Virus record (IMG/VR): IMGVR_UViG_2526164598_000023
DNA: 38,064 nucleotides
Origin: a virus
Lineage: Duplodnaviria; Heunggongvirae; Uroviricota; Caudoviricetes
Direction: 5' to 3' (one strand)
How positions within the stretch are numbered: the stretch's first letter is position 1; each line of letters begins with the position of its first letter. Below the pieces are notes generated by a model. The model had not been told where the DNA came from and made no database searches. It saw only the letters and a program-made list of their open reading frames with translations. Of the stretch, positions 1,739 through 36,270 are shown in pieces. Both the position numbers and the translations under genes were made by a program.

Positions 1739-2196
1739 AATGCGGTTCTCACAATATAATTGAAGGCAATATTGCGTGGGCGGTTTTCATTCCCATCTGA
1801 GGATTCCGTTCTGTATTGACTGGTAAATCTACCGTTAATTGCACCTTGCCGGACGGCGTTATCTGTCGACAACAGACTATCCCCTCTTTTGTCATTTGGC
1901 ACCAGTACCGTGTTATCCCACGCATCCCATGACCGAATATTATGATAATGACTTCCTGTTAACCACCCCTGCATGCTTAAGATGCCCCTTCCGGCATCCA
2001 CCCCGCGCCCATCATCCCAGCCACGGATAAACTCACCGCGTAAATCAGGTAATTTTAACGTTGGGTAAACCTTTGCCAGATTTGGGTACATTTCAGAAGA
2101 AAATGCTGCACCGTTACATTTCAGCCAGCCCGTTGGTGGTGTGGCTGAGGGCCATGGAACAGGCACACCAACGGGCAGTGCAGAGCCTTCCCCCAA
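1735..2196 (-). CDS. Silent tail-fibre C-terminal cassette V2 (no own ATG; first codon TTG inside hix-like site 2)
   Basis: Starts with the conserved block and ends NENRPRNIAFNYIVRTAL. Immediately follows the stop of the expressed fibre and is followed by tfa. Confidence 0.7.
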   Translation of the reverse strand: MGEGSALPVGVPVPWPSATPPTGWLKCNGAAFSSEMYPNLAKVYPTLKLPDLRGEFIRGWDDGRGVDAGRGILSMQGWLTGSHYHNIRSWDAWDNTVLVPNDKRGDSLLSTDNAVRQGAINGRFTSQYRTESSDGNENRPRNIAFNYIVRTAL

Positions 2197-2199
2197 ACC
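2070..2199 (-). repeat. About 130-bp block, near-identical inverted copy of 642..771
   Basis: See 642..771. Confidence 0.8.
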
Positions 2200-2213
2200 A
2201 ACGTTTTCATGCG
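2188..2213. other. hix/gix-like recombination site 2
   Basis: Plus strand TTCCCCCAAACC-AA-CGTTTTCATGCG. Contains the TGA stop of the expressed fibre (2207-2209) and the first codons of cassette V2. Confidence 0.55.
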
Positions 2214-5038: not shown

Positions 5039-5376
5039 AGCAGCTCCTGAGTCCGGGTCTGTCCGTCTGAGCCTTTCCAGCTCACCCGGAGCGTAAGATG
5101 TTCGCCGTCGACGGCGGGTTTAACTGACATAAGCTGGCAGCGGGGCTCCCAGCGCCGGATGGCATCGACGGATTCGCGCACCACATGCGGAATGGCCCGG
5201 TCTACAGGCCAGTCGATATAAAGATGCAGATTGCTGCCGAACTCCGGGCGATGCGGGTCGCTGCCGCGGGGAGTCCGCAGGATAATTTGAATCGCCTGCC
5301 GGATATCATCCAGCCCCCGGACAATTTCGCCGGGAGCCTGCAGGGTCGGTTGCCAGAATACTGAGGTTGTTTTCAT
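5029..5376 (-). CDS. Baseplate protein, GPW/gp25-like, 115 aa
   Basis: Small protein between spike and J; family assigned from position and size. Confidence 0.6.
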   Translation of the reverse strand: MKTTSVFWQPTLQAPGEIVRGLDDIRQAIQIILRTPRGSDPHRPEFGSNLHLYIDWPVDRAIPHVVRESVDAIRRWEPRCQLMSVKPAVDGEHLTLRVSWKGSDGQTRTQELLWR

Positions 5377-5430
5377 GGGGGCAGTATTGCCCCCGTGCGG
5401 GAACGCTGATATTAAAGGCGTTTAAAAAGC

Positions 5431-6027: not shown

Positions 6028-7178
6028 TTTTTCTTCTCCTTAATCACCGTCGATGTACTGCCATCCGGGTGATAAACCGTGAGTTTCTGAGTTTTTTGTT
6101 TTTTCCCTCTTGTGACTGGCCCCCGTGCCACTTCCAGCTCTGTGGTGTAGCCGCTGTTACGGTCAAACGCATGGCGGGCAGTGGTTATGAGCCATGGCCC
6201 GGATAACTGCCCAAAACCCACCAGTTCAATTTTGTTGCCTGCTGTCAGTTGAGGTGTTCCCGTCAGCGTCAGGGAGCCGTTCTGCTGGTATTCGTTATGT
6301 CTGGCCAGTGCTGAATCCGCTTTAATCCGGGCACTGTCCGGGTCGCTGACGCGGCTGTTAACTTTAAGTGAGTCAGCGCTGGTAACCTTACCACCTTTGA
6401 GCTTTTTGTCGCTTTCACGGGTACCACCATCAGCTTCGTAGACGATCAGTTTTTTACTGCTGCTTTTCTGGTGTTTTACCTTTGCAGATTTATAGACCCG
6501 GTTGATGGTGTCACGCAGGGAAAAGCGGGCCACATCCTGCGGTTTTAACTGCCTGACCGGCTCCTGACTGCGCAGTGTGGCCAGATGAGAAAAAATCAGC
6601 TGGTCACTGACCACTTTCACTGCATAACCATACTCGCTGGCCAGCCGGCGCAGAAAACCCACGTCGGTTTCAGCATACTGGGTCACCCGGTCGATTCTGA
6701 TGGACTCAATGCTGCCCACCAGTTTCAGTCGGTGCTTTCTGGCAATCCGCCCCGCAACAGCTGCCAGCGTGGTGTTCTCAAAACCACGACTGGTTTTAGT
6801 CCGCAGGGCACTGTTAACCGAGGTGGCCACCCCACGGATAGAAACAACGGAAGCGGGCGAACTCACTTCGATCTCGTCTATAGAGAACGTACCGCAGGAC
6901 AGCAGCTTCTCGCCCTGATAGCCCATTTTCAGCGTCAGCGTGTCACCCTTGCCCGGATACCATTTATCCAGCCAGCGGCCATCGGTGTCGTCCAGCTCCA
7001 CCTCAATGGTATCGGACTCATTTTTGATGTTATCGCTCCAGGTCACACGGGTGACATAAGGCGCGATATCAGAGGTGATGTTTTTCTGCAGATACCACAA
7101 AGTGAACACCGGTGTCAGCACATCGCTGACGCCGGTTAACGCTGATGTGACTTGCGCAGTGCTGTTTATCTCAGCCAT
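6024..7178 (-). CDS. Tail/baseplate hub protein, P2 gpD / Mu P (gp44)-like, 384 aa
   Basis: Position after the tape measure, N-like and X-like genes; size typical for gpD. Confidence 0.6.
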   Translation of the reverse strand: MAEINSTAQVTSALTGVSDVLTPVFTLWYLQKNITSDIAPYVTRVTWSDNIKNESDTIEVELDDTDGRWLDKWYPGKGDTLTLKMGYQGEKLLSCGTFSIDEIEVSSPASVVSIRGVATSVNSALRTKTSRGFENTTLAAVAGRIARKHRLKLVGSIESIRIDRVTQYAETDVGFLRRLASEYGYAVKVVSDQLIFSHLATLRSQEPVRQLKPQDVARFSLRDTINRVYKSAKVKHQKSSSKKLIVYEADGGTRESDKKLKGGKVTSADSLKVNSRVSDPDSARIKADSALARHNEYQQNGSLTLTGTPQLTAGNKIELVGFGQLSGPWLITTARHAFDRNSGYTTELEVARGPVTRGKKQKTQKLTVYHPDGSTSTVIKEKKK

Positions 7179-7381
7179 GGGGCAATATCCTCTTCTGTAC
7201 GGGCTTCTTCAGCCTCAATCACCGGGATCAGTAACAACAGCCCGGAGGGCAGCACCGGCGTGATGGCCACGTGCGGATTGGCGGCAATAATCCGGGGATA
7301 GCCCAGCGGGTCACCGTAGTACTGCCATGCCAGCGAATCCCAGCGCTCTCCGTCACGGGTAACATGTTCAAGAAACATCAC
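7166..7381 (-). CDS. Tail protein X-like (P2 gpX), 71 aa
   Basis: Pattern W..L...YYGD.......IAANP resembles the small gpX family. Confidence 0.5.
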   Translation of the reverse strand: MMFLEHVTRDGERWDSLAWQYYGDPLGYPRIIAANPHVAITPVLPSGLLLLIPVIEAEEARTEEDIAPWLR

Positions 7382-8262
7382 ACACTCCTCGTCAGTATTC
7401 TGGCGGCCATTGCACTTAATCCCGGAGACATGCGGTTGAATGCTGTGCCGGCGGCGTTAAGCTGCCCGGAAACGGTATCCAGAGCATCTGCAATATTTCT
7501 TTTGTCCACACCACTCAGCGCAGACTGTGCCTGCTGTACATACGTGGCTGCTTCGCTGGCTGTTCTGGCCAGACTGATGGCATCGGGCATGGATTCAGAG
7601 AGTGCGTTAAACGCCGGAACACTTTTCCCCAGAGCCCCGGAGATATTACCCAGTCCGCTCATCAGCCCCGGCACACGGGTCAGTGCGACAACGGGGTTAT
7701 CCTTCATTTTCTGTGTCACCCGAACGGCGCTGATAGTGGTCTGGAGTACAGACTGCGCCTGTTTCGCATAGTTGACGCCGTTGCGGATGAACTGCGCCAC
7801 CCCTGAAGGTGAAGGTATGGCACCGGAGACCGCCCCGACACCCGGGAGCTTCGTGCGTATTGCCGGTGGTTGCAGAGGATTTTTCGGGTCACCGGTGTAT
7901 TCCCGGAGAGACACGGTGGCACTGACAGCCAGCACGTTGCCGGTACTGTCAGTCTGCTCGCTGGTTGCAGTCACATCGGTAATCACGAACCAGCCGCGAT
8001 AGTCACCGTTGCCGAAGACCAGCGCCAGTGCCTGATGGGCTTTCATGGCTGTTCGCAGTCTCGCCAGCTCCACATCGGGTACACAATAATGCTGATGGAA
8101 AACCAGAGTTATCTGGATTTCGTCCAGCCTGTCGCCGACGAACTGCAGGCCAGGCTTACCCCCGATGCGGGCATGCTCCGCATAATCGACGCCGAACGTG
8201 GCCTCGAAGCCGTCCCAGTAGGTAATCAGCTCAAACTCAATATCACCCAGTACGGCAAACAT
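7378..8262 (-). CDS. Tail protein, Mu N / P2 gpU-like (DNA circularisation protein family), 294 aa
   Basis: Immediately downstream of the tape measure; N-terminus MFAVLGDIEFEL. Confidence 0.5.
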   Translation of the reverse strand: MFAVLGDIEFELITYWDGFEATFGVDYAEHARIGGKPGLQFVGDRLDEIQITLVFHQHYCVPDVELARLRTAMKAHQALALVFGNGDYRGWFVITDVTATSEQTDSTGNVLAVSATVSLREYTGDPKNPLQPPAIRTKLPGVGAVSGAIPSPSGVAQFIRNGVNYAKQAQSVLQTTISAVRVTQKMKDNPVVALTRVPGLMSGLGNISGALGKSVPAFNALSESMPDAISLARTASEAATYVQQAQSALSGVDKRNIADALDTVSGQLNAAGTAFNRMSPGLSAMAARILTRSV

Positions 8263-10952
8263 CAGCGGTACTCCTTACGTTGTTTCTGAGCCAGCAGACG
8301 CTCCAGCATTTTTTCCAGCTCATGCAGACTCATATTCAGGGCACCAGTCAGTCCTGCAGGCGCTGTGGTTTCCCTGCCATTGAGGAAAAACTGAGGATTA
8401 AAGCTGACCTGGATACCACCAGACGTTCCACCGCCGGTTGCAGCTGCACCACGGCCTGAATATCCGGCAGCCAGGATTTCAGGCGAGGGGATACGGGGAA
8501 CATCCGGTGTCATCTCATTTGCCAGACGTTGCCCTGGTAAAATCGATGCCCGGGTGGAGAGCGGAATAGCGGGCATGGAAGACAAACTATTGATTACGGC
8601 TCCGATCGCATTTTTAGCAGACGACATAAACCCATTGATATCGGGCAACGGCATACTGAAGCGAACACCTGAAGTGTTATCCCGTATTTCTGGCCCCTGG
8701 ATGCTCACGGGCATTCTGGGGAGCAGTTCACTGGCCATTCGCTGCCCGGCCAGAGCTGCAAGCGGAGTGGTCCGCTGCAGGCCAATGGCGGCCCCCTGCG
8801 CGATATTGTCACCAAAGCCCATAAACACGCGGCTCGGCGAATGAATGCCCAGCTTTTCGCTGAACCAGCCACTGATGCTGTCACCCATTCCGGTTACACT
8901 GGATTTGAGCGACTCCCATTTGTTTTTGATACCGTTAATCAGACCATCGACAAGATGGCCACCGAAGTCGGTAAACTTTGCCGGCAGATCAACACCAAGA
9001 TATTTCAGCGCAGCTGCAAAGGCTTTATAGAGCAGGCCTGCCGGCGACCAGTTAATCAGTAACTTACCAATTCCCACAATGCCGCCGTTAAAGGCTTCCT
9101 GAATGTCTGCCCAGCGCTGTTTAAACCAGCCACTGACTGCCCCCCAGTTGCGGTAGATAAGGTAAGCTGCTGCCGCGACAGCGGTGATAACGAGACCGAT
9201 GGGATTCATCATCAGCGCACGTCCAATCCAGAGAACAGCACGTCCGGCGAGCATAATTCCGCGAACCAGCCCCTCGGAGAGCACGCCACTCAGTGTTCTG
9301 GCTCCTCTGGCGACGGCGCTAAATCCGGTCACCAGCCAGCGGAGCTTACCGCCTTGCCCCAGTGCGAGCGACAGACGAAGCCAGTTGGCCCGAAGTAAAA
9401 CAGCATTTTTCCAGACACTTACAAAGGGGGAAATAAGGAGATTCAGCCCCAGTTTGAGACCAACAGTCGCTATCTTAATCGCAAGGAGCGCACTGATGAG
9501 CTTAAAAGCCCCACTGACAAATTGCGGGTGAGTCGCTACCCAGTGTTTTGCCCCCTGAATGAGTGGAAGCAGTTCCTGAGTCAAAGAAATAAAAGATGGA
9601 GCTAATTGATCGCCCAGCGTAATTGCCAGATCGCGACTGCTGACCATAAGTGTTTTAGTGGCTTCAAGGGGAGATTTCAGCCGCTGATCATAAGCACTGG
9701 CAAGCAAATCGTTATCCGCAGCCCTGAGAGCACCGGCACGGATCTCTCGATATCTGTCCATGTTGGCCAGCATCGGGCGGATAAATGCCATGACCTGCAT
9801 ATCCGCGAACATATCGCCCAGACCAAAGTTTTTCGCCAGAGCCTGAAGTGCCTCATCTCTTGCCGTATCATTCTTTATTTTCATGGCTGATTTGAAGCCG
9901 GCCAGCGCTTCGGGGCTTTTGGCATTGAGGTAACGTTCTATAACACTCAACATCCCTTCAATCGGAGAGATCCCCGCAGCTTTATAACTCGCAATAGATC
10001 CCTGCAAATCAATACCCAGATCAGCAAACTGTTTCTGAGTATCGCGGGCAAAAATTTTGGTAAGAAAGTTTTTAAAATTATTGGCTGCTTCGTCGGTGGA
10101 ACCTGCACCGATTTTTGCTATCTGGAGACTGGCCCCGATTTCAGCAACAGCCTCTTTTCCACTGGCAATACCCGCCATCATTGGGGCCAGGGACTGCATC
10201 CACTTGACCTGATCCGGGATTTCAAATGACCCCTGGTCACCGGCATAAGCCATAATATTCTGAACGGCACCAAAATCTCTGGCCGCACCTTTCAGGGAGT
10301 TTTGCCAGACTGCGGCCACTTTTGCCCAGTCCTGAGCAGACGTGCGTGTTGCCGTTGCCGCGCGGGCAATATCCGGCATCAGAAAACCGATATCTGACAC
10401 ATTATCAATATTGTCGCTGATGAGTGAACCCACCGCCTCCTGCAGCTCATCCTGATACTGATTGTATTTAAGCGCCCAGCCTTTTATCTGTCCGGCAAGT
10501 CCATCCCGCGTTTTATTGTCATATTTTGCGGTGATCGACATATCAATCATTTTGTCCTGAAAAGACATGGACTGCTGAACGGCAGGGGAAACCGTATGAT
10601 AAACAGTCTGTGCCATGCCATACGCTTCAATCCCCTGACCATACAGCGCCATGCGGTTAGCTTTCAGCGCATCACTGGTAGCGGATGCCGCTGACAGACG
10701 GCGCTGCTGGCGCTCAATTTGCTCCATGGTGCGGCTTACCCGCAGCAGCTCGCTGTTGAGATGCTGCATCCGGGAAGAACCCAGTTGACCATAACGTTCT
10801 GTTGCACGGGTTAAAGCGTTCTGACGTTCCTGCAGGCGGCGTGAGGTATCGCTCAGGGAATCAAGCGCACGGCGGGTACCGCTCATTGCAGAACGGAATG
10901 TGCTACCAATCATCCCGCCGATAACAACGCCGACTGAAAACTGTCCCGACAT
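8262..10952 (-). CDS. Tail tape measure protein, 896 aa
   Basis: Very long, Ala/Gln-rich N-terminal part and hydrophobic central segments; directly downstream of the frameshifted chaperone pair. Confidence 0.8.
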   Translation of the reverse strand: MSGQFSVGVVIGGMIGSTFRSAMSGTRRALDSLSDTSRRLQERQNALTRATERYGQLGSSRMQHLNSELLRVSRTMEQIERQQRRLSAASATSDALKANRMALYGQGIEAYGMAQTVYHTVSPAVQQSMSFQDKMIDMSITAKYDNKTRDGLAGQIKGWALKYNQYQDELQEAVGSLISDNIDNVSDIGFLMPDIARAATATRTSAQDWAKVAAVWQNSLKGAARDFGAVQNIMAYAGDQGSFEIPDQVKWMQSLAPMMAGIASGKEAVAEIGASLQIAKIGAGSTDEAANNFKNFLTKIFARDTQKQFADLGIDLQGSIASYKAAGISPIEGMLSVIERYLNAKSPEALAGFKSAMKIKNDTARDEALQALAKNFGLGDMFADMQVMAFIRPMLANMDRYREIRAGALRAADNDLLASAYDQRLKSPLEATKTLMVSSRDLAITLGDQLAPSFISLTQELLPLIQGAKHWVATHPQFVSGAFKLISALLAIKIATVGLKLGLNLLISPFVSVWKNAVLLRANWLRLSLALGQGGKLRWLVTGFSAVARGARTLSGVLSEGLVRGIMLAGRAVLWIGRALMMNPIGLVITAVAAAAYLIYRNWGAVSGWFKQRWADIQEAFNGGIVGIGKLLINWSPAGLLYKAFAAALKYLGVDLPAKFTDFGGHLVDGLINGIKNKWESLKSSVTGMGDSISGWFSEKLGIHSPSRVFMGFGDNIAQGAAIGLQRTTPLAALAGQRMASELLPRMPVSIQGPEIRDNTSGVRFSMPLPDINGFMSSAKNAIGAVINSLSSMPAIPLSTRASILPGQRLANEMTPDVPRIPSPEILAAGYSGRGAAATGGGTSGGIQVSFNPQFFLNGRETTAPAGLTGALNMSLHELEKMLERLLAQKQRKEYR

Positions 10953-11445: not shown

Positions 11446-11542
11446 GATTGTGCTCCTGTGTAAGTTCAGGGCAGTATGTCGGGAGAAGCGCGTGACGGAT
11501 ATTAAAGGAGATTAAGAAGAAGGGGCCGGAGCCCCTGTGATG

Positions 11543-16243: not shown

Positions 16244-17359
16244 TTACAGGCAGCGTGCGACAGCAGCCTCATAGCTGATGCCTTCTTTTTTGGACAGGGC
16301 CACTGCTTTCTGATGCAGGGCCAGACGCTCAGGATCGGCTTCCGCAAACTCTGCCACATCCACCTTCACCGTGTCGCCGACACGCTCTTTTGTGGCCTGT
16401 TCGGCGAAATTCATCACCGGCTCCCCGTCGGAGAGCAATGAACGAAAGGCGGTGGCCAGCGGTGTGCGGCTTTCCCCCTCAGCAAACTCCACCGGCTTGT
16501 CGCCACCGGCGACGGCATCCAGCAGGGCAACCACCACGGAGGAGGCGCGGGGAGCCAGACGGCCCTCTGCGACCAGTTTTTCTGCAAAGGCCACATTGTC
16601 CTTATGCAGTTGCTCCTGTCTGACCTGTGCATCACGCGCATCGCGATCAGCAGCCTGCTGCTTCAGGCGGCGGTTCTCCTCCTGAAGGGCTTCAATCTCT
16701 TCTTTTGTCATCGATGATTCCTCGTTACTTGCGGAAGACGGCACCTGGCCTGTCTCACTGAATTGCGCACCTGCTGCATCCTGCGACGGTGTGTCGCGGT
16801 ACGCCTCTTCGCGCAGATTGTTGAGCTGCCATTCCGGCAGGACTTTTTCTGCTTCGTCCAGACTGAAGCGGGCGATCAGAAAATCGCGCAGCTTTCCCCA
16901 CAGGGAGGCATTCGTGATGGCCTGCCAGTCGGCGAACTCCACCACACCTTCTTCCTGCTCACTGAAGGACACCTGTTTCAGCCCCTTGACGGAAGGTGGC
17001 TGTGCCCCGAGAAAGCCCACATGGCGCAGGTAGAGCACGCCGGGCTTCGGATTGGACGGTGAATCCGGGAGGTAGAAAGAGGCGGACACTTTTTTGAATC
17101 GTCCGTCGGTGACCATCTCAGCAAACTGCGGGTCCAGCTGGGCAGGCTCTGCCATCAGATCGACGCCGCTGAGCGACAGGGCTTTCACCCAGCCCCACGC
17201 CGGGTCTTCCGTTCTGGGATGACCAATCACGAGTGGTGCTTCATGGACGGACGGGTCATAGGCTTTCACGCAGGCGGCAAGATCGTCTGGCGTGAACGGC
17301 AGTTTTTTGCCGTGCATATCGGTATGAGTACCGGCTTTAAAAATGTGAATGGCTGACAT
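16244..17359 (-). CDS. Head maturation protease / scaffold (Mu I-like), 371 aa
   Basis: N-terminal domain followed by an acidic, coiled-coil-like C-terminal part (EEIEALQEENRRLKQQAADRDARDAQVRQEQ). Confidence 0.65.
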   Translation of the reverse strand: MSAIHIFKAGTHTDMHGKKLPFTPDDLAACVKAYDPSVHEAPLVIGHPRTEDPAWGWVKALSLSGVDLMAEPAQLDPQFAEMVTDGRFKKVSASFYLPDSPSNPKPGVLYLRHVGFLGAQPPSVKGLKQVSFSEQEEGVVEFADWQAITNASLWGKLRDFLIARFSLDEAEKVLPEWQLNNLREEAYRDTPSQDAAGAQFSETGQVPSSASNEESSMTKEEIEALQEENRRLKQQAADRDARDAQVRQEQLHKDNVAFAEKLVAEGRLAPRASSVVVALLDAVAGGDKPVEFAEGESRTPLATAFRSLLSDGEPVMNFAEQATKERVGDTVKVDVAEFAEADPERLALHQKAVALSKKEGISYEAAVARCL

Positions 17360-17573
17360 TTTGCTGTCCCGCGTTATGTTGTCGGAGACAGTTTGTGAGA
17401 AATGCAGGCCCGGCGATTTTAATCTGCTTTAGAAAACATCAGGGGAGAAGGACAGGGAAAGCAATACGGTGAACCGGAGGCGGTTATAAAACAGAGGCTG
17501 TAAAGCCTTTATAAAGGTAATACAGCCCCTCATTCGCTGGCAATGATAAATCACCCGCCTGAAGAGAGAAAAC

Positions 17574-18032
17574 TCAGCGACGGGCCGCTGATTCAAGATG
17601 GCGGACAATGGTATCGAGGATGGGGATTACCACTTCAGGCTGTAGTTCTCCATCCCCCGTCACCGGCAGGAACGGGCGGGCCGGAAGTTCAACAGACTCA
17701 TTACGCCCCGTTTTACCCCCGAACTGGTGAATGGCACCGTAAACAACGTTGGTCCCCACAACAGCCTGCCGGTCGTCATGGTCGGTTGATACTGACCCCA
17801 TCAGACGCCCGGTATCCTGCAGTGTCTGCCCGTCACGCTCTTCCGCTGCCAGCGAGGGCATCCACCCCGGACGCCCCTCATCAAGAAAGTTAAACTGTGT
17901 TTCCGCCAGCAGGGTTCCGGCAATTTTGCGCATCGCGGGCTCCAGGTCTGTGGCAGCAAGATCCAGCGCACGGAGGCTCCGGCGCAGGGATTTATCGTTA
18001 ATGGTGATACTGACCAGGTTATCGGAAGCCAT
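17574..18032 (-). CDS. Virion morphogenesis protein (Mu G-like), 152 aa
   Basis: Position between the F-like and I-like genes. Confidence 0.55.
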   Translation of the reverse strand: MASDNLVSITINDKSLRRSLRALDLAATDLEPAMRKIAGTLLAETQFNFLDEGRPGWMPSLAAEERDGQTLQDTGRLMGSVSTDHDDRQAVVGTNVVYGAIHQFGGKTGRNESVELPARPFLPVTGDGELQPEVVIPILDTIVRHLESAARR

Positions 18033-18034
18033 TG

Positions 18035-18856
18035 TTATCCTCTCAGTTCCTGTTGTGCCAGTGGCTGAAGCGTACCCTGATAGCGGGCCAGGTCGGGACG
18101 GTATGCTGCCCCCGGTGCATAAGACCAGCCGACGTCGGTGGTCACCTTCGTGGTGCCGGTATTAAAGGTGGCCACGTTCCGCATTTCGCCGGTTTTCTCT
18201 GAGACCAGTTTCAGTTCCTGGCCCATGGCAGAGCCGGAGCTGATAACCTTCAGGCCACGGGCACGTACATCCGCCGCACTCAGGGCAATCACACTACAGC
18301 GGCAGCGCCAGCCGTTCGGCGGGTAAAATGCCTGCCAGAACGGGTCATCCCAGCGCAGCACCAGACCATGCAGCGCCAGATGGCTCCTGCGGGTATGGCT
18401 GTCGTTGATGCCGGTATACATCCAGTACGGCCTGTCGTCGACGTTTTCCATCTGTTCCGCCCAACGACCGGCGCTGTAGAGTACGGACATATTGGTGCGA
18501 AAGATGGTATCGAGCCGCCACGGACTGCCCTGCTGAATGGTGACTGGCTCACCCGTTACCGGGTCAGTCGTGTCACGTGGTCCCCACCATCCCTTACGCT
18601 TCAGCACCGGCTCCAGCTCCTGCCGGAACCAGCGATCGGTTTTTCCTTCATCGACAGCCTGCTGCAGTGCCCCGCGAATATCTTCCAGGATATCCAGGCG
18701 GGTCACTTTAGCAACGGTAAAGGCGCGGGCATGGGCCTCCTGCCACATTTCTTCCCAGTCCCAGGTAATCTGATACCCTTTGGACTTCAGGTAGTTGATT
18801 GCCCGCTTCGGGGGAAGCGTCATGCAGTACGCCAGTTCAGCCGTTGTCACGCTCAT
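18035..18856 (-). CDS. Head morphogenesis protein (Mu F-like), 273 aa
   Basis: Contains NGWRCRC; follows the portal gene. Start uncertain because it overlaps the portal end. Confidence 0.6.
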   Translation of the reverse strand: MSVTTAELAYCMTLPPKRAINYLKSKGYQITWDWEEMWQEAHARAFTVAKVTRLDILEDIRGALQQAVDEGKTDRWFRQELEPVLKRKGWWGPRDTTDPVTGEPVTIQQGSPWRLDTIFRTNMSVLYSAGRWAEQMENVDDRPYWMYTGINDSHTRRSHLALHGLVLRWDDPFWQAFYPPNGWRCRCSVIALSAADVRARGLKVISSGSAMGQELKLVSEKTGEMRNVATFNTGTTKVTTDVGWSYAPGAAYRPDLARYQGTLQPLAQQELRG

Positions 18857-24819: not shown

Positions 24820-24933
24820 GTGTGTCTCCTCGTTTGGTGGAGACAGCATCACAAATGTGGCGGGATACGGATTTTAAACAGCGTTAATAGTGAAGATGTA
24901 AACGTGCACTGCATGATGACTTTGAAAGAACGA

Positions 24934-24961
24934 CCAGCCCGGTACCCGAACACCGGGCTGG
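24934..24961 (-). terminator. GC-rich stem-loop (10-bp stem, 8-nt loop), possible insulator/terminator upstream of the late operon
   Basis: CCAGCCCGGT-acccgaac-ACCGGGCTGG; on the minus strand it is followed by TCGTTCTTTC. Confidence 0.3.
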
Positions 24962-25007
24962 CCATCGCCCCACAGGAATGCGCTGTGAGCCGACCGAGGT
25001 TCAGTCA

Positions 25008-25019
25008 GTCTCGCGAGAC
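25008..25019. promoter_or_regulatory. Perfect 12-bp palindrome GTCTCGCGAGAC upstream of the methyltransferase gene
   Basis: Self-complementary 12-mer about 48 nt upstream of the ATG at 25067; TATAAT hexamer at 25042-25047. Confidence 0.25.
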
Positions 25020-25066
25020 CAGACTAGCCTGCCATATTTTTTATAATTGTAAAAGGCTTACAGATT

Positions 25067-25837
25067 ATGAAAATGCAGACATTACCCATCGTTCCATGGA
25101 TTGGTGGCAAACGCCGCCTTGCAAAACACATCCTGCCGCTGTTTCCGGCGCATGAATGTTATGTGGAGCCGTTTTGTGGGGCAGCAGCGCTCTATTTTCT
25201 TAAGGTACCCGGCAAGATCGAAGTCATTAATGATATCAACGGTGAACTGGTGAACCTGTATCGGGTGGTAAAACATCATCTGGAAGAATTTGTACGCCAG
25301 TTCAAATGGGCGCTGGTCAGCCGGCAGATCTACAAATGGCTGCAGATCACCCCGGAAGAAACACTGACGGATATCCAGCGTGCAGCACGGTTCTACTACC
25401 TTCAGAAGCAGGCGTTTGGAGGCAAGGTGGCGGAGCACAGCTTTGGTACCTCCACCATATCCCCGCCACGCTTCAACCTGCTGCGTATTGAAGAAGAACT
25501 GTCAGCGGCACACCTGCGGCTTTCCAGAACGGTCATAGAACACATGGACTGGCAACAGTGCATAGAACGATATGATCGCCCGCATACGTTGTTCTACTGT
25601 GACCCTCCATACTGGGGAACGGAAGGTTATGGTGTGGAGTTCGGACTAGAAAATTATGATCATATGGCAGATTTAGCACGCAGGATCAAAGGGAAGATGA
25701 TTATATCGGTGAACGATATCCCGGAAATGCGGCAGGCATTCAACGGTCTAAATATTCAGTCGGTTGATATCAGCTACAACCTCAAGATCACTGGCAAATC
25801 CAGTCGCAAGAAGGAACTCATTATCCTCAACTTTTGA
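25067..25837 (+). CDS. N6-adenine DNA methyltransferase, Dam-like, orphan (no adjacent restriction endonuclease), 256 aa
   Basis: AdoMet motif EPFCGAAALYF near the N-terminus and catalytic DPPY (YCDPPYWGTEGYG). Confidence 0.85.
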   Translation: MKMQTLPIVPWIGGKRRLAKHILPLFPAHECYVEPFCGAAALYFLKVPGKIEVINDINGELVNLYRVVKHHLEEFVRQFKWALVSRQIYKWLQITPEETLTDIQRAARFYYLQKQAFGGKVAEHSFGTSTISPPRFNLLRIEEELSAAHLRLSRTVIEHMDWQQCIERYDRPHTLFYCDPPYWGTEGYGVEFGLENYDHMADLARRIKGKMIISVNDIPEMRQAFNGLNIQSVDISYNLKITGKSSRKKELIILNF

Positions 25838-27032
25838 CCGAATAGTAAGACTTCATGCAGTGAATCAAGTACTGCATGAAGTCAAGGGCTGGTTTTGTGT
25901 ACCAAAAATAAACAGTGATAGCGGTAATAATTCCCATAACTAGAACACCACGTATAATCCAGAACGTACGTTTCTGCGTGTCTAGTCGCGCAGAAATACT
26001 GCTAAATACACCAGCCACGTCATCTTTAATGAAGGAATATTCCTTATTAATCTGTTTTTCTTTGTATTCAATTTCTTCGCCTAAGGCCTTTATAGATTGC
26101 ATCTGGTTCGAAAGTGCCAGCCAGATTAACGTTGCAGCAAAAATGCATCCCAGAAGAATTATTGTGTTTGTTATCCCTTGGCCTGACCATTTCGTAGCCA
26201 CTTTGAATTGGGTAGCTACGATAACAGAGGCAACAGGAATGCCAAGTATATGGTTCTGGATATCTGAAAACGCTTTGTGGATTTTACCCATTTCTTCGAC
26301 TTTTGCAGCACGCAGTTGATCCATTACTTTGTCATAAGAGAATCCAGAAGAGTAGATACGATACCCTTTCAGAAACTTTTCATGCAGACGCTGAATATTG
26401 TCCAGTAAATAAGCGAATACTAGAGGTGAATCAATTCCATCACTAACTGCTTGGATACTTTCAATCAGAATATCTAGCTTCTGATCCTTATGGGTATCAT
26501 CATTGAAACAAGCTATAAGGTTATCAAGATACTCTCTTTGCAAATTTTGTACATTTTCTGCAGCGAAGTGCGGTAATAGCTTGATAACTTCTTTTTTCAG
26601 AAAAACTAACTGACAAGTTGAGTTATCAAAGTAGGCCGCGGCCTCTTTTAGCAGGTTAACGAACTCGAGAATCTTCCGGTAGTTGCTGATGAAAACGGGG
26701 ATATCTTCATCATCATTACGAAACTTTGTTTCTAGGATGAAGTAATTAGCTGGCTCAAGGCACTGATGCTTTGGAGCATTTAGCAATTTTTCATGGGTGG
26801 AAAACACAAGTCCCAGTCCACTCCGTGGTGACGTCACACGTAGGATGATCGTGTTACCTGGAGCGATAGTGCCTGTATCAATAGAAAGACCATATTCACG
26901 AGGATCATCAAGCAAAGTATCAACCAGATCACAATCGGACTGATCTAAGAGCAACAGCGAACCGACACGAAACCCCTCTTGGAATTCCATACGACGATAC
27001 AGATCTGTCAGCATCTCAAATGAAATCGCCAC
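25827..27032 (-). CDS. Membrane protein with soluble N-terminal domain and two C-terminal TM helices, 401 aa
   Basis: GTG start at 27030-27032 two nt after the upstream stop, with a GAGG RBS (alternative ATG at 27014). TM helices ITNTIILLGCIFAATLIWLALS and FWIIRGVLVMGIITAITVYFWY; AT-rich codon usage. Confidence 0.65.
   Translation of the reverse strand: MAISFEMLTDLYRRMEFQEGFRVGSLLLLDQSDCDLVDTLLDDPREYGLSIDTGTIAPGNTIILRVTSPRSGLGLVFSTHEKLLNAPKHQCLEPANYFILETKFRNDDEDIPVFISNYRKILEFVNLLKEAAAYFDNSTCQLVFLKKEVIKLLPHFAAENVQNLQREYLDNLIACFNDDTHKDQKLDILIESIQAVSDGIDSPLVFAYLLDNIQRLHEKFLKGYRIYSSGFSYDKVMDQLRAAKVEEMGKIHKAFSDIQNHILGIPVASVIVATQFKVATKWSGQGITNTIILLGCIFAATLIWLALSNQMQSIKALGEEIEYKEKQINKEYSFIKDDVAGVFSSISARLDTQKRTFWIIRGVLVMGIITAITVYFWYTKPALDFMQYLIHCMKSYYSVKS
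25849..25883. repeat. Perfect 13-bp inverted repeat with 9-nt spacer
   Basis: GACTTCATGCAGT-gaatcaagt-ACTGCATGAAGTC, 12 nt past the methyltransferase stop and inside the last codons of the convergent 401-aa gene, at the boundary where composition becomes AT-rich. Confidence 0.7.
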
Positions 27033-27034
27033 GA

Positions 27035-28042
27035 TTAAACCTCAGTCATCCACATTTCCCTAAATTCTTCAGGTACATTACGTAGGGTGATAATATTTGT
27101 TTCCGGATCATAATCAATATAGCCTTCAGTTTTCCCTTCCCGGTCAAACTTAAGTTCCCAATATTTAGACTTGCCTTTAAAAGATACCAGAGCCCGAATG
27201 ACTCGACCATCAGGAACGAAGCCATCCGATAACTCCAACTCTTCAGCAGCAAGTTTACCAGATAACTCCTCGGGAGCCTGGGGCCAAATGGCATTAACAA
27301 GGGTTTCAAGACTAAGTGGTTCACCAGCCTTACTTAGTGCATGTAAGTGTTCAAACGCACTCTTAAGAAATGCATCTTTTTCAGCGCCGTCAAGTCCTTT
27401 CTCTGCCGCAAATGCTTTTAAAACGTCACGTAACTTTTCAGACTCTCGTTTGGCGATTAAGACATCATTACAGCCGAGGAACTGTTTAAAATAGTTTGAA
27501 ACATTACCTTGCCCCTTAAGAAAACTGATATAGCGCTCTGCGCCACTTTCCCACGCGGTTAAGTCAATGCGCCCAGCCATACGCAGCTTAGCAATATCAA
27601 GATAGGTACTATCTTGGATGTTAAAATCATCTGTGACAGTGGATCCAATGGTAGCGCTTACAATAGCTATCAACAGGTGTTCATTGTGTCCTATCACGAT
27701 ATTTGCAAAAAGAACATAACCACCAGTAGCCATGTTTTCTCGCTGAGAACGTTCCGTCAGGTGATGCATCATTCGGCAGGAACTTTGGTAGAAATCATCA
27801 ACACCTTCGAGAAAGTCCCCAGCCATTCGTTCCATAGGATAGTTATCCGTATCGCCTTCAAAATAGCCATAACCTTTACCTGTGCGTCCTGCATATTTTG
27901 CACAAATATCGTTTATAAGGCGCTGGGAGGCTTCAGTAACTAGACCTTCTTCAGGACTCAATCTCTCAGAAGCGTCTCCATTTTGTTGTTTGTCTAAAAT
28001 GTGAACTACAACGTGTTTAACTTCAATGGTCTGCTCAGACAT
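27035..28042 (-). CDS. NdpA/YejK-like nucleoid-associated protein homologue, 335 aa
   Basis: Segments GGYVLFANI..HLLIAIVS, YLDIAKLRMAGRIDLTAWESGAERYISFLKGQ and the C-terminal YIDYDPETNIITLRNVP resemble E. coli YejK as I remember it; same length (335 aa). ATG 28040-28042 with AAGGTGGA RBS. Confidence 0.65.
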   Translation of the reverse strand: MSEQTIEVKHVVVHILDKQQNGDASERLSPEEGLVTEASQRLINDICAKYAGRTGKGYGYFEGDTDNYPMERMAGDFLEGVDDFYQSSCRMMHHLTERSQRENMATGGYVLFANIVIGHNEHLLIAIVSATIGSTVTDDFNIQDSTYLDIAKLRMAGRIDLTAWESGAERYISFLKGQGNVSNYFKQFLGCNDVLIAKRESEKLRDVLKAFAAEKGLDGAEKDAFLKSAFEHLHALSKAGEPLSLETLVNAIWPQAPEELSGKLAAEELELSDGFVPDGRVIRALVSFKGKSKYWELKFDREGKTEGYIDYDPETNIITLRNVPEEFREMWMTEV

Positions 28043-28112
28043 TAGCTATCCACCTTATTTTTTATTGCTTAATGGCAAATAATTTCTGCTATATGTTCTC
28101 GTTAGGAACACA

Positions 28113-28520
28113 TTAACCCACATTTTTTAACCGCTCAATCGTTGCGGATAATTCCTTCAGTTGTTTTTCCATCTCAATCACACGCTGTTTTTCTTCAGCG
28201 CCTCGCATGAGATCTCGCCGAACCTCAGGATCTAACTGGTTTAGAAGTTCAAGCATTTTAAGGTCTGACGGGCTGAATTGATGTTGTGTTGGTACAGCAA
28301 CAATTTCTTTAGATGGAATATGTTCTTTACCGGTAAGTAGCCAATCGATCGATACACCCAAATGGGTGCTTAGCGCAACAAGAGCCTCTGCGTTTGGTTC
28401 TCTCTCTCCACGCAAATAGTTTTGAAGTGAGCGATATGGAATTTTTGATAAGTTAGATAATGCCTTTATTGTCATGCCATTAGCATCCATCACTTCACGC
28501 AATCTCTCTTTTGTACTCAT
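28113..28520 (-). CDS. Phage repressor, HTH (XRE-like), 135 aa
   Basis: Start moved to ATG 28518-28520 (MSTKERLREVMDANGMTIKALSNLSKIPYRSLQNYLRGER), an HTH; divergent from the ner-like gene. Confidence 0.7.
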   Translation of the reverse strand: MSTKERLREVMDANGMTIKALSNLSKIPYRSLQNYLRGEREPNAEALVALSTHLGVSIDWLLTGKEHIPSKEIVAVPTQHQFSPSDLKMLELLNQLDPEVRRDLMRGAEEKQRVIEMEKQLKELSATIERLKNVG

Positions 28521-28539
28521 TTGAACATATCTCAATTTG

Positions 28540-28559
28540 ACACACTCATTTGGGTGTGT
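28540..28559. promoter_or_regulatory. Candidate operator dyad ACACAC-N8-GTGTGT in the repressor/ner divergent region
   Basis: 6-bp inverted arms separated by 8 nt, centred between the two divergent starts. Confidence 0.3.
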
Positions 28560-28608
28560 ACAATAGACCCAATAGAGTACATCATAACCTAACAGGAACA
28601 CGGTGCAT

Positions 28609-28833
28609 ATGAACAAACAACAAGTTCGGGCACGGCTGGTTGAACGAGGCAGTAGCTTGCGCCAGTTCGCGCTTAACGCGGGCTATGAACCACGAACAGT
28701 CACCCAGGCAGTCAGTCGCTGGGCTGGTAAAAGTGAACTACCTCGCGGTCGTTTGACTTATCGGATTTTGCGAGATCTATCGGTTGCAATAGGTAAAGAA
28801 GTTACCCCCGGTATCCTTAAGGAGGCGTCATGA
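28609..28833 (+). CDS. ner: Ner-like DNA-binding protein, 74 aa
   Basis: MNKQQVRARLVERGSSLRQFALNAGYEPRTVTQAVSRW... matches the Mu Ner family; ATG 28609 with AGGAA RBS (the track start at 28603 is GTG). Confidence 0.7.
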   Translation: MNKQQVRARLVERGSSLRQFALNAGYEPRTVTQAVSRWAGKSELPRGRLTYRILRDLSVAIGKEVTPGILKEAS

Positions 28834-29138
28834 ATAAACCAAATACATCAAGCTCAGGTACCCGTATTTTGCGCGTTCTTAAGGCCTTACGTGGCCACGC
28901 TTTGAACGGTGTTTCTAACGGGGAACTAGCGGTTGCACTGCACGAATCACCGGCAAACATCAACCGGGCACTTAACACGCTCATTGAAGAAGGGTTGGCT
29001 CTGAAACTAGAAAACGGGCGTTTCGCACCAGGCATCCAGTTGCTGCAGATCGCCATGGCCCACAGTAACGAGATGGCACGTGCACAGGATCGCATTAACG
29101 AAATCAACCAACGTGTTATTTCAGGTAGTCGTTTGTAA
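28830..29138 (+). CDS. Winged-helix DNA-binding protein, 102 aa
   Basis: ILRVLKALRGHALNGVSNGELAVALHESPANINRALNTLIEEGL resembles a MarR/IclR-type wHTH. Confidence 0.5.
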   Translation: MNKPNTSSSGTRILRVLKALRGHALNGVSNGELAVALHESPANINRALNTLIEEGLALKLENGRFAPGIQLLQIAMAHSNEMARAQDRINEINQRVISGSRL

Positions 29139-29148
29139 GGAGTAATCA

Positions 29149-30060
29149 ATGGGACGCACCAAATCACCGGTTAGCACTGAACTGAACGTCGAGGTACCGC
29201 TGTCGGATGATCTCAATGTCAGTCTAAACGCCATGACACAGCATCGCATGGAAATCATGCAACAGTTCGGCGATGGTCTGCCCTATGAGCGCGATCGTGT
29301 TGTCCATGAGGCACGCTTTTATATGGCACAGAGCGCTGAGGCCATGCTGGAGGCAGGTAAGCGGCTGATAATCCTTAAGGAAAATGAACCACACGGGGAG
29401 TTTATAAAGATTCTTGAAAGTGAGTTGGGGCTGGCATACCGGACATCTGTGAGAATGATGCAAGCATCGACAAAATACTTATCCCCGGCGCTGAAACCAA
29501 ATGTGCCAACGTTGGCACATTTGGGAAAAGCCAAACTTTTCGAATTAATGACAGAAGACGACGAAGAGCTTGCCGAACTGGCCGACGGCGGCACAGTTGC
29601 CGGCCTGACGCTTGACGACGTTGATCGCATGTCAGTACGTGAATTGCGTCAGGCCCTGCGCGAAGCGCGCGAAACCAACGCAGCACAACAGCGCGTACTC
29701 GCTGACAAAAATGAAAAAATAGACTCACTCTCCACCAGACTGGAGAAGAAATCCCGTATTCAGCCGCCTGAGCCTGATGAAGAGGTTAAGAAGCTGCGGG
29801 CGGAAGTGACAGCATTAGCGGTTGAGGCGGAATCTGCTATCGCCGTTCGACTGTCCAGCGCTTTTGAGACGCTGTGCGCATATTGTGCTGAAAACATGAT
29901 TGATACCCCCAGAGACTTCATGGCAGGCCTGGTCTGTCAACTGGAAAGCACAGCGCGTAGCCTGCGCTCCACATTTGACCTGCCGGATGAGCCAACAGGC
30001 AATGCCGCGCCTTCATGGCTGACTGAGCCGACGCCACAGATTAACGGGCTGGAGGCATAA
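29149..30060 (+). CDS. Hypothetical protein, 303 aa
   Basis: ORF between the wHTH gene and the transposase; no recognised catalytic motif. Confidence 0.5.
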   Translation: MGRTKSPVSTELNVEVPLSDDLNVSLNAMTQHRMEIMQQFGDGLPYERDRVVHEARFYMAQSAEAMLEAGKRLIILKENEPHGEFIKILESELGLAYRTSVRMMQASTKYLSPALKPNVPTLAHLGKAKLFELMTEDDEELAELADGGTVAGLTLDDVDRMSVRELRQALREARETNAAQQRVLADKNEKIDSLSTRLEKKSRIQPPEPDEEVKKLRAEVTALAVEAESAIAVRLSSAFETLCAYCAENMIDTPRDFMAGLVCQLESTARSLRSTFDLPDEPTGNAAPSWLTEPTPQINGLEA

Positions 30061-30063
30061 CCA

Positions 30064-31833
30064 ATGAATGCTGCCCTGACTGAACGACTGGTTTATGTCG
30101 CCCGCGCGGCACGTGACGCGGGGCATGGTAAACGCGGTGCAATATACGACGCTGCCTGTGCTGAACTTGGCATGTCCCGCGCCACTCTGCTGCGCAGGCT
30201 GAAGGAGGTCTCTGTGACTGATAAACGCAAAAAACGCGCTGATGCCGGACGCAGCGCCCTGACCCGCGACGAAGCCGCGCTGATATCTGCCACACTGCGT
30301 GAGGCCACCCGCAAGAACGGTAAGCGTCTCTATTCCATCGCGGATGCAGTGGAAACCCTGCGGGCTAACGGCTTTATCTCCGCAGGCAGAACAGATGAAA
30401 CCACCGGTGAGTTTTTCCCGTTGTCCGAAGATGCCATCAGTCGTGCCCTGCGTAACTATGGCCTGCACCCGGAACAACTGGATGCTCCTGCGCCGCATAC
30501 CGAAGTGGCCAGTCTGCATCCCAATCATGTCTGGCAGATTGATGCCTCGCTCTGCACGCTTTACTACCTGAGCAATGGACACAAAGGGCTGCAGGTGATG
30601 GACAGCGCGAAGTTCTACAAGAACAAACCCGCTAACCTTGCCCGTATCGCCAGTGACCGCGTGTGGAGTTACGAGATTACCGACCATGCCAGCGGCTGGA
30701 TTTACGTTGAGTATGTGACGGGTGCGGAATCCGGTGAGAACCTGTGTTCTGTGCTTATCAACGCCATGCAGGAGCGTGGCGGCGCAGACGTGCTGCACGG
30801 CGTGCCAAAAATACTCTATCTCGACCCCGGTTCGGCAAACACCGCGGGTATGACGAAAAACATGTGCCGCTCACTGGGCATTGACCTGATAGCGCACAAG
30901 CCGCATAACGCCCGCGCCACCGGACAGGTGGAAAAGGCGCGTGACATTATCGAACGCAAGCTGGAGCCGGGTCTGAAGTTCCGGCCGGTTCACAGTCTGG
31001 AAGAACTCAACGCGCTGGCCGCGAAATGGCGCAGCCACTTTAACGCCACGGCTGTTCACAGCCGCCACGGTAAAACCCGCACGGATATCTGGCTGAAGAT
31101 TACTGCTGAGCAGCTGAAAAAAGCGCCTTCCGTTGAGGTATGTCGTGAACTGGCTGTGGCGGCACCAGAACTCCGCAAAGTCACGCCAAAACTTCGTGTC
31201 TCGTTCCGGGGCACTGAATTTGACGTATCAACGGTACCGGGCGTACTGGTCGGTGAAAAACTGATGATTACCCGTAACCCGTGGCGCAGCGATGTGGCAC
31301 AGGTGGTTCTGACCGGTGAGGACGGCCACGAGACGTTCTTCCTGGTCGAAGAGGTCAGAAAGAACGAGTTTGGCTTTGCTGAAGGCGCGGCGGTATTTGG
31401 CGAAAGTTACAAAGCCCTGCCGGAAACCCCGGCGCAGATGGCGGCAAAAGAAACCGAAGCGCTGGTCACCGGTACAGACAACGCCGCAGATGCAGCTGCC
31501 GCACGCAAGGCGAAGGCGCTGCCGTTCGGCGGGCGGCTTGACCCGTATAAACATATTGATGACGCCACACTTCCGGCCTATATGCCGAAGCGAGGTCAGG
31601 CCTCTGACGTACGCGGACCGCGCACTGAACAGCGTCCCATGACTCATGTGGAGGCCGCGAAAGCCCTGCGCGGGAAGTTCAGCGCCAACGGCCTTACCTG
31701 GACGCCGGAACATTACCGCCAGTTAACGGCACAGTACCCGGACGGCGTACCGGAAGCCGCACTGGATGAAGTCATGGCCACGCTGACCACGCCGGCCCGC
31801 AGCAGTGTTATCAGCATTGTTAACGGCAACTGA
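30064..31833 (+). CDS. DDE transposase (Mu A-like), 589 aa
   Basis: Candidate DDE residues in HVWQIDAS, ILYLDPGSANTAG and ATGQVEKARD; N-terminal HTH-like region; followed by an AAA+ gene. Confidence 0.8.
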   Translation: MNAALTERLVYVARAARDAGHGKRGAIYDAACAELGMSRATLLRRLKEVSVTDKRKKRADAGRSALTRDEAALISATLREATRKNGKRLYSIADAVETLRANGFISAGRTDETTGEFFPLSEDAISRALRNYGLHPEQLDAPAPHTEVASLHPNHVWQIDASLCTLYYLSNGHKGLQVMDSAKFYKNKPANLARIASDRVWSYEITDHASGWIYVEYVTGAESGENLCSVLINAMQERGGADVLHGVPKILYLDPGSANTAGMTKNMCRSLGIDLIAHKPHNARATGQVEKARDIIERKLEPGLKFRPVHSLEELNALAAKWRSHFNATAVHSRHGKTRTDIWLKITAEQLKKAPSVEVCRELAVAAPELRKVTPKLRVSFRGTEFDVSTVPGVLVGEKLMITRNPWRSDVAQVVLTGEDGHETFFLVEEVRKNEFGFAEGAAVFGESYKALPETPAQMAAKETEALVTGTDNAADAAAARKAKALPFGGRLDPYKHIDDATLPAYMPKRGQASDVRGPRTEQRPMTHVEAAKALRGKFSANGLTWTPEHYRQLTAQYPDGVPEAALDEVMATLTTPARSSVISIVNGN

Positions 31834-35828: not shown

Positions 35829-36270
35829 ACAACGTCTTATCCAGCTCATTCATATTGCCCGTAATGAACTGGGTATGGATGAAGACACCTACCGCCAGAT
35901 GTTACAGGGGCTGACCGGTAAAGCCTCAACCAAAGGAATGGATACCACACAACTAAACTGCGTGCTGGAATCCATGAAAAGGAAAGGCTTTCGCGTTAAG
36001 CCTGCCAGAAAAGCCAGCTCCGGTTTACCGCTGGATAACCATCCGCAGTCCAGGAAAATCCGTGCGCTATGGCTTGAAATGGCTGCTGCCGGCATTGTTC
36101 GTGACCGTTCAGAAAATGCATTAGCGCGGTGGATCAAGCGGGAAACGGGCATCAGCGCCCTGCGCTGGCTCAATACTGAACAGGCAAGCAGTGTTATTGA
36201 GAAACTGAAGAAGTGGCAGCACAGAGCTGCGGGAGTAAAACATGAGCGACCTGAATCAGTTTCGAAGTAA
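35818..36270 (+). CDS. gemA: GemA-like regulatory protein, 150 aa
   Basis: MMTKQRLIQLIHIARNELGMDEDTYRQMLQGLTGKAST resembles Mu GemA; GGAG RBS. Confidence 0.65.
   Translation: MMTKQRLIQLIHIARNELGMDEDTYRQMLQGLTGKASTKGMDTTQLNCVLESMKRKGFRVKPARKASSGLPLDNHPQSRKIRALWLEMAAAGIVRDRSENALARWIKRETGISALRWLNTEQASSVIEKLKKWQHRAAGVKHERPESVSK

Follow-up and report, generated by a model that had tools for sequence, protein, structure and literature searches.

In bacteriophage Mu, genes G and I are separated by a 196-nt gap in which the annotation of AF083977 places a gyrase cut at 17879/17880, a predicted terminator at 17908–17953 and the late promoter P_I at 17977–18043, the last with reference to the transcript mapping of Margolin et al. 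1989. The Mu activator C recognises an imperfect dyad of 16 bp with its centre at −43.5, and the late promoters possess a −10 element and lack a −35 element (PMC2582627). Alignment of the four annotated Mu late promoters revealed ATAA (with CCCC), 24 nt and then a hexamer (TAGACT, CAAACT, TATCCT or TAAGAT), and placed the TTAT-N6-ATAA-type element at −50 to −37, which agrees with the published dyad. The G–I gap of BcepMu, a phage of a different host genus (Burkholderia), measures 202 nt; the literature searched yielded no account of late promoters of the BcepMu type or of phage PhiKM. Here we analyse the corresponding gap, at positions 17360–17573, in a 38,064-nt stretch of viral DNA (IMG/VR record IMGVR_UViG_2526164598_000023), which is referred to at its full length as the window. 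The window is a BcepMu-type transposable (Mu-like) prophage of E. coli.

Sequence comparison makes it quite probable that the gap is a control region like the Mu G–I region, in which a terminator-like hairpin is followed by an activator-dependent late promoter.

The G–I gap and its predicted late promoter

The late genes lie on the minus strand of the window, where the 214-nt non-coding gap is bounded upstream by a G-like virion morphogenesis gene (17574–18032; Pfam PF05069 Phage_tail_S, E = 4.9e-23; PHROG 26; 45% identical to BcepMu gp31) and downstream by an I-like head maturation protease/scaffold gene (16244–17359; PHROG 976, E = 7e-163; 50% identical to BcepMu gp32). The latter has no Pfam match, and BcepMu gp32 is annotated as 'Mu I equivalent'. 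The G-like open reading frame (ORF) stops with TGA at 17574–17576 and the I-like ORF starts with ATG at 17359, and these ends confirm the 214-nt separation pointed out by an earlier sequence-only reading of the window. That reading had also described most late genes as overlapping or a few nucleotides apart, and the RefSeq annotation of an identical twin prophage (L001, strain EcPF7, a urinary isolate) agrees: neighbours in the late block mostly overlap or lie 1–14 nt apart, and the G–I gap is the largest between late genes, followed by gaps of 97, 75, 54 and 50 nt. The 86 related loci that we collected yielded 60 distinct gap sequences, and the gap is kept in all 60, at 191–239 nt (191, 192, 201, 204, 205, 206, 211–215 and 239 nt). 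These results confirm that the gap is genuine and neither an annotation artefact nor a chance occurrence.

To measure conservation, 18 representatives differing by more than 7% in the gap were aligned, and the mean identity to the window was calculated per segment. The four-base half-sites of a CTAA-N6-TTAA element have a mean identity of 0.97, a downstream hexamer 0.81 and the leader segment 0.79, compared with 0.47 for the spacer between the box and the hexamer and 0.40–0.51 for the intervening gap segments. The element, CTAA-AGCAGA-TTAA (17419–17432, minus strand), is a predicted binding site for a Mor/C-family activator with two TTAA-type half-sites one helical turn apart. The hexamer, CAAACT (17390–17395, minus strand), is the predicted −10 element; it begins 23 nt past the box, whose centre falls at about −42.5, and the whole layout reads CTAAAGCAGATTAAAATC, 19 nt, CAAACTGTCTCC. 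The A at −11 and the ACT at −9 to −7 are invariant among the relatives. CAAACT is identical to the −10 hexamer of Mu P_I, as is the G that follows it (CAAACTG). No match to a −35 element was found; that position is occupied by the poorly conserved spacer, and a scan with the sigma-70 consensus detected no minus-strand promoter in the gap. Directly upstream of the box lies a T-tract, GTTTT (17433–17437, minus strand; TTTTTT in most relatives), which is conserved in the alignment and could conceivably act as an UP-like element. From geometry alone, the transcription start is predicted about 7 nt past the −10 (17381–17385, minus strand), so initiation would occur near 17383 and leave a leader of ~24 nt.

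The same design recurs at other late genes. Allowing one mismatch at most, we counted 21 occurrences of TTAA-N6-TTAA in the window, where 6.9 ± 2.6 are expected, and 0 of 100 shuffled sequences reached this number. Four copies are found in gaps between late genes, on the strand of these genes; each is followed by wATC, and in each the second TTAA is separated by exactly 23 nt from nAnnCT, after which comes G(y)C. Besides the box in the G–I gap, these predicted sister promoters on the minus strand are found upstream of the holin gene (24845–24887; box 24874–24887; hexamer GATGCT), in the tube/chaperone gap just past the tube-gene terminator (11473–11515; box 11502–11515; CATACT) and in the V/W baseplate gap (5383–5425; box 5412–5425; AATACT, followed after 6 nt by the ATG at 5376). 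Upstream of the holin gene the layout reads TTAACGCTGTTTAAAATC, 19 nt, GATGCTGTCTCC, with the same spacing as in the G–I gap. The region upstream of the lysis operon, where the sequence-only reading had proposed to look for a shared motif, thus carries the same box, spacing and type of hexamer.

Three of these sites showed local features of their own. The holin gene starts at ATG 24819, preceded by AGGAG, as in RefSeq; the program-made ORF list begins at GTG 24852, and the predicted lysis promoter −10 (24845–24850) lies inside this spurious ORF extension. The compact terminator that follows the tail tube gene (11514–11536, minus strand; AGGGGCTCCGGCCCCT, then TCTTCTT) runs into box 11502–11515, and the order is the same in BcepMu (GGCCCGCTTCGGCGGGCC, T6, then the box). 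In front of the W-type baseplate gene (5374–5388, minus strand), just six bases separate the predicted −10 from the ATG, and the predicted transcript would therefore be leaderless. BcepMu gp49 shows the same geometry (CAACAT GGCCGC ATG; locus L099, ~30810–30825).

The same four places in BcepMu also have the motif: the region upstream of the holin gene, the G–I gap, the stretch that follows the tube-gene terminator, and the V/W gap. The BcepMu G–I gap is embedded in the same gene order, and its sites share the box TAAAGCCGATTAAAAG, the 23-nt spacing and an nAnnnT hexamer; its I-equivalent promoter would start transcription almost at the start codon. When a matrix built from the four BcepMu sites only was used to scan both strands of the window, the four window sites took ranks 1–4 among ~76,000 positions, with the G–I gap site first at 19.3 bits. 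The same scan found no late-promoter box upstream of the dam-like methylase gene, which diverges from the holin promoter. The case for the promoters is thus built on four sites that coincide at predicted places across two phages.

The window encodes one Mor/C-family activator (36242–36631, plus strand; Pfam PF08765 Mor, E = 1.3e-43), and a tblastn search of the window found no second copy. The protein is 54% identical to BcepMu gp01, annotated as 'late transcriptional activator', and about equally distant from Mu Mor (31%) and Mu C (37%). We infer that this protein binds the TTAA-type box. With one such gene and no second copy, a single activator would turn on all four late promoters directly; Mu has both Mor and C, so the cascade here probably has two steps (early and late) instead of the three of Mu. 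The expectation, drawn from Mu by the sequence-only reading, that a C-type late promoter precedes the I-like gene is therefore supported by sequence comparison through the shared motif, its four copies, the Mu geometry and the one Mor/C gene.

The resemblance to Mu is one of architecture. Both G–I regions have the same two flanking genes, a near-central position and a similar length, and both place a long AT-centred hairpin with a UUUUAU tail before an activator-dependent promoter and a pyrimidine-rich tract before the activator site. The Mu promoters Plys, P_I, P_P and Pmom and the Mor-dependent Pm likewise combine a −10 element and no −35 with a two-half-site element of ~14–16 bp that overlaps the −35 region and is centred at about −43. 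Mu also encodes its own Mor/C activator and has four late promoters, including those before the lysis genes and before gene I. The window promoters follow the Mu design one base tighter. The half-sites differ, however, being TTAA...TTAA in the window and of the TTAT...ATAA type with CCCC in Mu, and the other two promoters of the window are found within the P2-type tail module (one follows the tube gene, the other precedes the W-type baseplate gene) rather than before a P-type gene and mom. The two gaps have no significant DNA similarity, as the best local alignments scored between the shuffled mean and the 95th percentile; sequence homology of the gaps was accordingly rejected, and the apparent match to the core of the Mu gyrase site also fell within the shuffled range.

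The hairpin and a proposed order of late transcription

Upstream of the promoter, RNA of the late strand can form a terminator-like hairpin (17493–17530, minus strand) with a 10-bp outer stem, a 3 × 3 internal loop, a 4-bp inner stem and a UAUA loop. Its folding energy is −19.6 kcal/mol (z = −3.2), and none of 200 shuffled sequences folded as well. One G·U pair of the stem is G–C in KP12. Directly past the hairpin lies the U-rich tail GUUUUAU (17486–17492, minus strand), which is weaker in many relatives (CUUUGC). The sequence-only reading had noted a stem-loop at 17495–17508 followed by CTGTTTTATA; the terminator scan also found it, and it is real but was understated, as this pairing is a sub-optimal one inside the much stronger 10 + 4 bp hairpin. 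In its layout the hairpin agrees with the terminators predicted in the G–I gaps of Mu and BcepMu. The hairpins of Mu and BcepMu have energies of −19.8 and −17.3 kcal/mol, respectively, and each is followed by U-rich sequence, UUUUAU in Mu and UUUGG in BcepMu.

As in intrinsic terminators, a stable hairpin here stands directly before a coding-strand U-rich run at the end of a gene block. The hairpin differs from them in that its stem is broken by the internal loop, the run has four U's with one base in between, and the family keeps neither the form of the hairpin nor the tail. The U-run is short, and the stem and tail vary among relatives. On balance, we slightly favour the view that the hairpin terminates or attenuates transcription.

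Taken together, these features suggest an order of late transcription in which the gap is most likely the boundary between two late transcription units, one for packaging and early head genes and one for the capsid. Transcripts from the lysis-operon promoter (box 24874–24887) would pass through the packaging and early head genes as far as the G-like gene, where the hairpin and its tail would probably terminate or attenuate them, or at least make a protective 3′ end. About 55 nt past the hairpin, the single Mor/C-family activator would bind the half-sites at 17419–17432 and recruit host sigma-70 RNA polymerase to a promoter with a weak −10 and no −35. Transcription would then restart near 17383, and the short leader would lead into high expression of the protease/scaffold, the capsid and the downstream genes.

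The layout of two distant relatives with 1–2 kb of genes inserted between G and I fits separable terminator and promoter modules and a permissive junction: the box and −10 stay directly upstream of I, and a palindrome that overlaps the hairpin (described below) stays beside G. In the relative L128 (~2117–3167), the insertion lies exactly between the palindrome and the late-promoter box and encodes a 267-aa ORF, and in L151 (reverse complement, ~6353–8634) up to 2.2 kb is inserted between the same two elements, with ORFs that include an IS3-like transposase. The palindrome/box junction appears to be a tolerated insertion point.

Several observations weigh against this reading of the gap. The −10 is weak, as CAAACT agrees with TATAAT at 3 of 6 positions, and the spacing from box to −10 is 23 nt rather than the 24 nt of Mu. 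Single copies of the motif do not individually stand far above the maximum of the matrix-scan null (mean 13.4, sd 2.1), because the box is rich in A and T and TTAA equals its reverse complement. The terminator is moderate, with four U's after a one-base spacer and a weaker tail in many relatives. The hairpin also takes three forms across lineages: one group of relatives has a GC-rich hairpin of 16 bp as a separate structure just upstream of the palindrome, the BcepMu hairpin around the palindrome is formed in a different register with 13 bp, and no strong hairpin was present in the inspected sequences of the most distant clade. Given this variability, termination is the least secure part of the model. 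Finally, neither the terminator nor the promoter module accounts for the conservation of the palindrome at the level of its sequence.

Alternative roles of the palindrome and the gap

The near-invariant palindrome CCTTTATAAAGG (17506–17517), together with its conserved extension GCTTTAC, spans 17500–17517, and the conserved block TTTATAAAGGCTTTAC corresponds to 17500–17515. Among the 18 representatives, the palindrome has an identity of 0.97, against 40–50% in its flanks. The core CTTTATAAAG is present in every relative examined. BcepMu, which has the same block, carries the form CGTAAAGTTTTATAAAGGCTTTACG, and in the clade with ~40% G identity the palindrome reads GTAAA(C/G)GCTTTATAAAG and the conserved arm is on the opposite side. 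One way to read it is as a series of alternating TAAAG/CTTTA units that make up to two 11-bp palindromes in tandem, TAAAGsCTTTA. Its conservation is one of sequence and not of structure.

These features raise the tentative possibility that the palindrome, together with the TAAAG/CTTTA units beside it, is a DNA site in its own right, either structural or bound sequence-specifically by a protein, which would exist alongside the terminator and the promoter. Its conservation stands out sharply from that of its flanks and extends to BcepMu and to the relatives with ~40% G identity, and lineages differ in the RNA hairpin that surrounds it, which means that structure by itself does not account for the sequence. 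It occurs just once in the window, and it stays with the 3′ end of G where cargo genes separate G and I. Against such a site, no candidate protein for binding emerged, the early control region (28000–29200) holds no second copy, and the palindrome is unlike both the gyrase motif and the invertase crossover sites of the window phage. It does not fit the IHF or Fis consensus, as judged by eye only. Moreover, it lies inside a good hairpin in the window, and a purely RNA-level role, as a terminator loop or a processing site, is compatible with the data.

The palindrome lies just past the G-type gene near the midpoint in every BcepMu-type transposable phage examined, and Mu has no counterpart of it. 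It could, more speculatively, be a dedicated DNA site, perhaps a mid-genome organising or regulatory site that takes the role of the Mu gyrase site through a different partner. In Pseudomonas phage Ab30, a different double palindrome stands right after the G-like gene (locus L220, 440–500), with the two copies GGCACATTGTGCC and GGCACAATGTGCC. The Ab30 segment after the G-like gene was reported to be free of self-insertions, and its authors suggested a possible gyrase site (PMC5977238). Given the Ab30 arrangement, the palindrome described here may be part of a wider feature of transposable phages, and other lineages, such as the D3112/Ab30-like phages, may carry palindromes of their own at the same place.

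Other identities for the palindrome were considered and rejected. As a sigma-70 promoter, its TATAAA lacks a conserved −35 or TG extension on both strands in the window, the group-2 relatives and BcepMu, by eye. As a second activator box, it lacks TTAA, and the TAAAG unit, common to it and to the P_I box of the window and of BcepMu, is missing from the box of the more distant clade. It is unrelated to the invertase (gix-type) crossover sites of the phage, which are of the AAACGTTGGTTT type and lie at 635–646 and 2195–2206. An operator shared with the early control region was rejected on the lack of a copy at 28000–29200, and a fixed helical phasing with the box on the variation of their distance by tens of bases among relatives. 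None of the consensus sequences of IHF, Fis, TyrR, PurR and DnaA fitted by eye, a comparison that serves as a lead only.

[quoted passage not shown] The SGS lies between G and I in both Mu and FluMu (PMC2628397; PMC10052514), and the Mu gyrase cut is 20 nt past the G stop (AF083977). The window gap is 0.75–0.95 kb from the midpoint of the prophage and the BcepMu gap 0.3–0.5 kb from its own, and the block GCGGGTGATTTAT (within 17539–17558), 16 nt past the G stop, resembles the Mu SGS core GCGG(C/G)TGATTTTAT (supplement of PMC6379681). We therefore rebuilt a symmetrised 130-bp gyrase matrix from 184 Topo-seq cleavage sites (PMC6379681 supplement) and the W3110 sequence, and the coordinate convention was confirmed by the expected G at +1 and C at +4. 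The rebuilt scores correlated at 0.81 with those of the authors, and as a positive control the Mu SGS ranked 2nd of 36,588 Mu positions, effectively tied for first. A naive score against the published 133-bp consensus failed this control (Mu SGS rank 247–672) and was dropped.

With the rebuilt matrix, the best score in the gap was 4.5, which ranks 748 of 37,935, whereas the candidate SGS core scored 2.9 and the centre of the palindrome below 0; the BcepMu gap ranked 143rd. The alignment of AAATCACCCGC with the Mu SGS AAATCAGCCGC is in inverted orientation, and its score of 17 equals the shuffled mean (17.6 ± 2.3). In one group of relatives, moreover, the GCGGGTGATTTAT block forms the 5′ arm and loop of the GC-rich hairpin. 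The window gap thus lacks the gyrase-motif signal of Mu, a Mu-type strong gyrase site in the gap is not supported, and we consider it unlikely that one is present. The best gyrase-motif matches in the window are at 5221, 24260 and 15730 (scores of 11.9, 11.2 and 10.1, compared with 10.3 for the Mu SGS); all three are outside the gap, and none is closer than ~2.6 kb to the midpoint of the prophage.

A further possibility is that the gap has no promoter and one long transcript runs from the lysis-operon promoter, with the conserved blocks acting on the RNA in processing, stability or translation of the I-like gene. Besides the weak −10 and the sigma-70 scan that returned no minus-strand promoter, another observation in favour of this view is a conserved inverted repeat in the leader, CTGTCTCC...GGGACAG (17364–17391, minus strand). 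Its 3′ arm lies on the Shine-Dalgarno GGGA (17367–17370) and so covers the ribosome-binding site of the I-like gene, and its 5′ arm overlaps the −10 and the next bases. The read-through RNA leader folds at −12.3 kcal/mol (z = −2.95), whereas RNA from the predicted +1 has no stem, and the stem is kept in 25–29 of 29 distinct leaders with some covariation at the innermost pair. The gap hairpin could also be an RNase III-type processing site. Nevertheless, the first late gene (holin), which has no upstream late transcript to process, is also preceded by the box and hexamer. The geometry is within one base of the mapped Mu late promoters, and the hexamer is that of P_I. Activator-dependent promoters are, moreover, expected to fail a −35/−10 consensus scan (PMC2582627). 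An arrangement without a promoter is consequently very unlikely, and we retain the activator-dependent promoter.

Comparable repeats accompany all four predicted late promoters. The six bases past the −10 (GTCTCC, GTCTCC, GCCCTG and GCCCCC) form one arm of an inverted repeat, and the second arm either lies over the ribosome-binding site or borders on the start codon; the repeats are located at 24821–24844, 17364–17391, 11450–11470 and 5377–5395 on the minus strand. RNA started at the promoter would be without the first arm, and read-through RNA would have the site occluded (−12.3 kcal/mol for the I leader and −14.2 kcal/mol for the holin leader). The Mu P_I leader has a similar inverted-repeat layout, which is not clearly shared by BcepMu.

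A gene for a small protein or a small RNA in the gap is hardly credible: although a 41-aa ORF (KP12_270) is annotated in the homologous KP12 gap and the window has a 59-aa TTG ORF at 17429–17608 on the minus strand, no ORF of at least 20 aa in the window corresponds to the one of KP12, none of the gap ORFs of at least 20 aa (25–59 aa long) is conserved, the differences in gap length are not multiples of three, which argues against coding, conservation is limited to two short islands instead of being spread along a reading frame, and Rfam returned no match at gathering score for the whole window and none even at E ≤ 1 for the gap.

The prophage and its family

Across 1.9 kb around the gap, the window shares 99.4% identity with Escherichia phage PhiKM, a phage assigned to Bcepmuvirus, and 81% with a Klebsiella phage record. 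The same 1.9-kb region was found in 638 of 5426 complete E. coli genomes (~12%), mostly at ≥99% identity. In the twin prophage of EcPF7, RefSeq annotates a Mu-like early region (DDE transposase, Gam, GemA and one Mor-family activator), Mu-like head genes and a P2-like tail. Comparison of the window with that locus placed the right end of the prophage at ~36793 and the left end slightly past position 1, which gives an element of ~36.9 kb with its midpoint at ~18.3 kb. The two prophages have different insertion sites, as expected for a transposable phage. They vary most at 24900–29950 of the window, from the lysis genes to the early operon and including the methylase and the immunity region, where identity is 80–90% or the sequences do not align; the rest is 98–100% identical.

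Two further regions of the window have distinctive features. Positions 1–2720 constitute an invertible tail-fibre segment with a serine invertase gene at the left edge (~1–573) and 237-nt inverted repeats at 635–871 and 1970–2206, with a third copy at 2496–2718; the gix-like cores described above lie at 635–646 and 2195–2206. The dam-like methylase gene occupies 25067–25837 on the plus strand. Between it and the holin promoter lie a GC-rich hairpin (CCAGCCCGG...CCGGGCTGG, 24934–24961) with a T-rich run behind it and, at 25008–25019, the perfect 12-bp palindrome GTCTCGCGAGAC.

This prophage family is common in E. coli, including urinary isolates, and the analysis provides a predicted map of its late transcription, with four promoters and a consensus operator, TTAA-N6-TTAA, 23 nt, nAnnCT, for a single Mor/C-family activator. 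Since phages of both E. coli and Burkholderia share the motif, late promoters of BcepMu-type genomes can be annotated with it. The motif can also serve to predict the points at which cargo genes are inserted; two relatives carry insertions exactly between the terminator and promoter modules. The region is most likely the BcepMu-family counterpart of the Mu G–I control region and, except for the invariant palindrome, would represent expected biology. The negative gyrase-site result suggests that BcepMu-type phages do without the Mu solution for pairing their ends, and the invariant mid-genome palindrome is a specific candidate for end-pairing or for another role.

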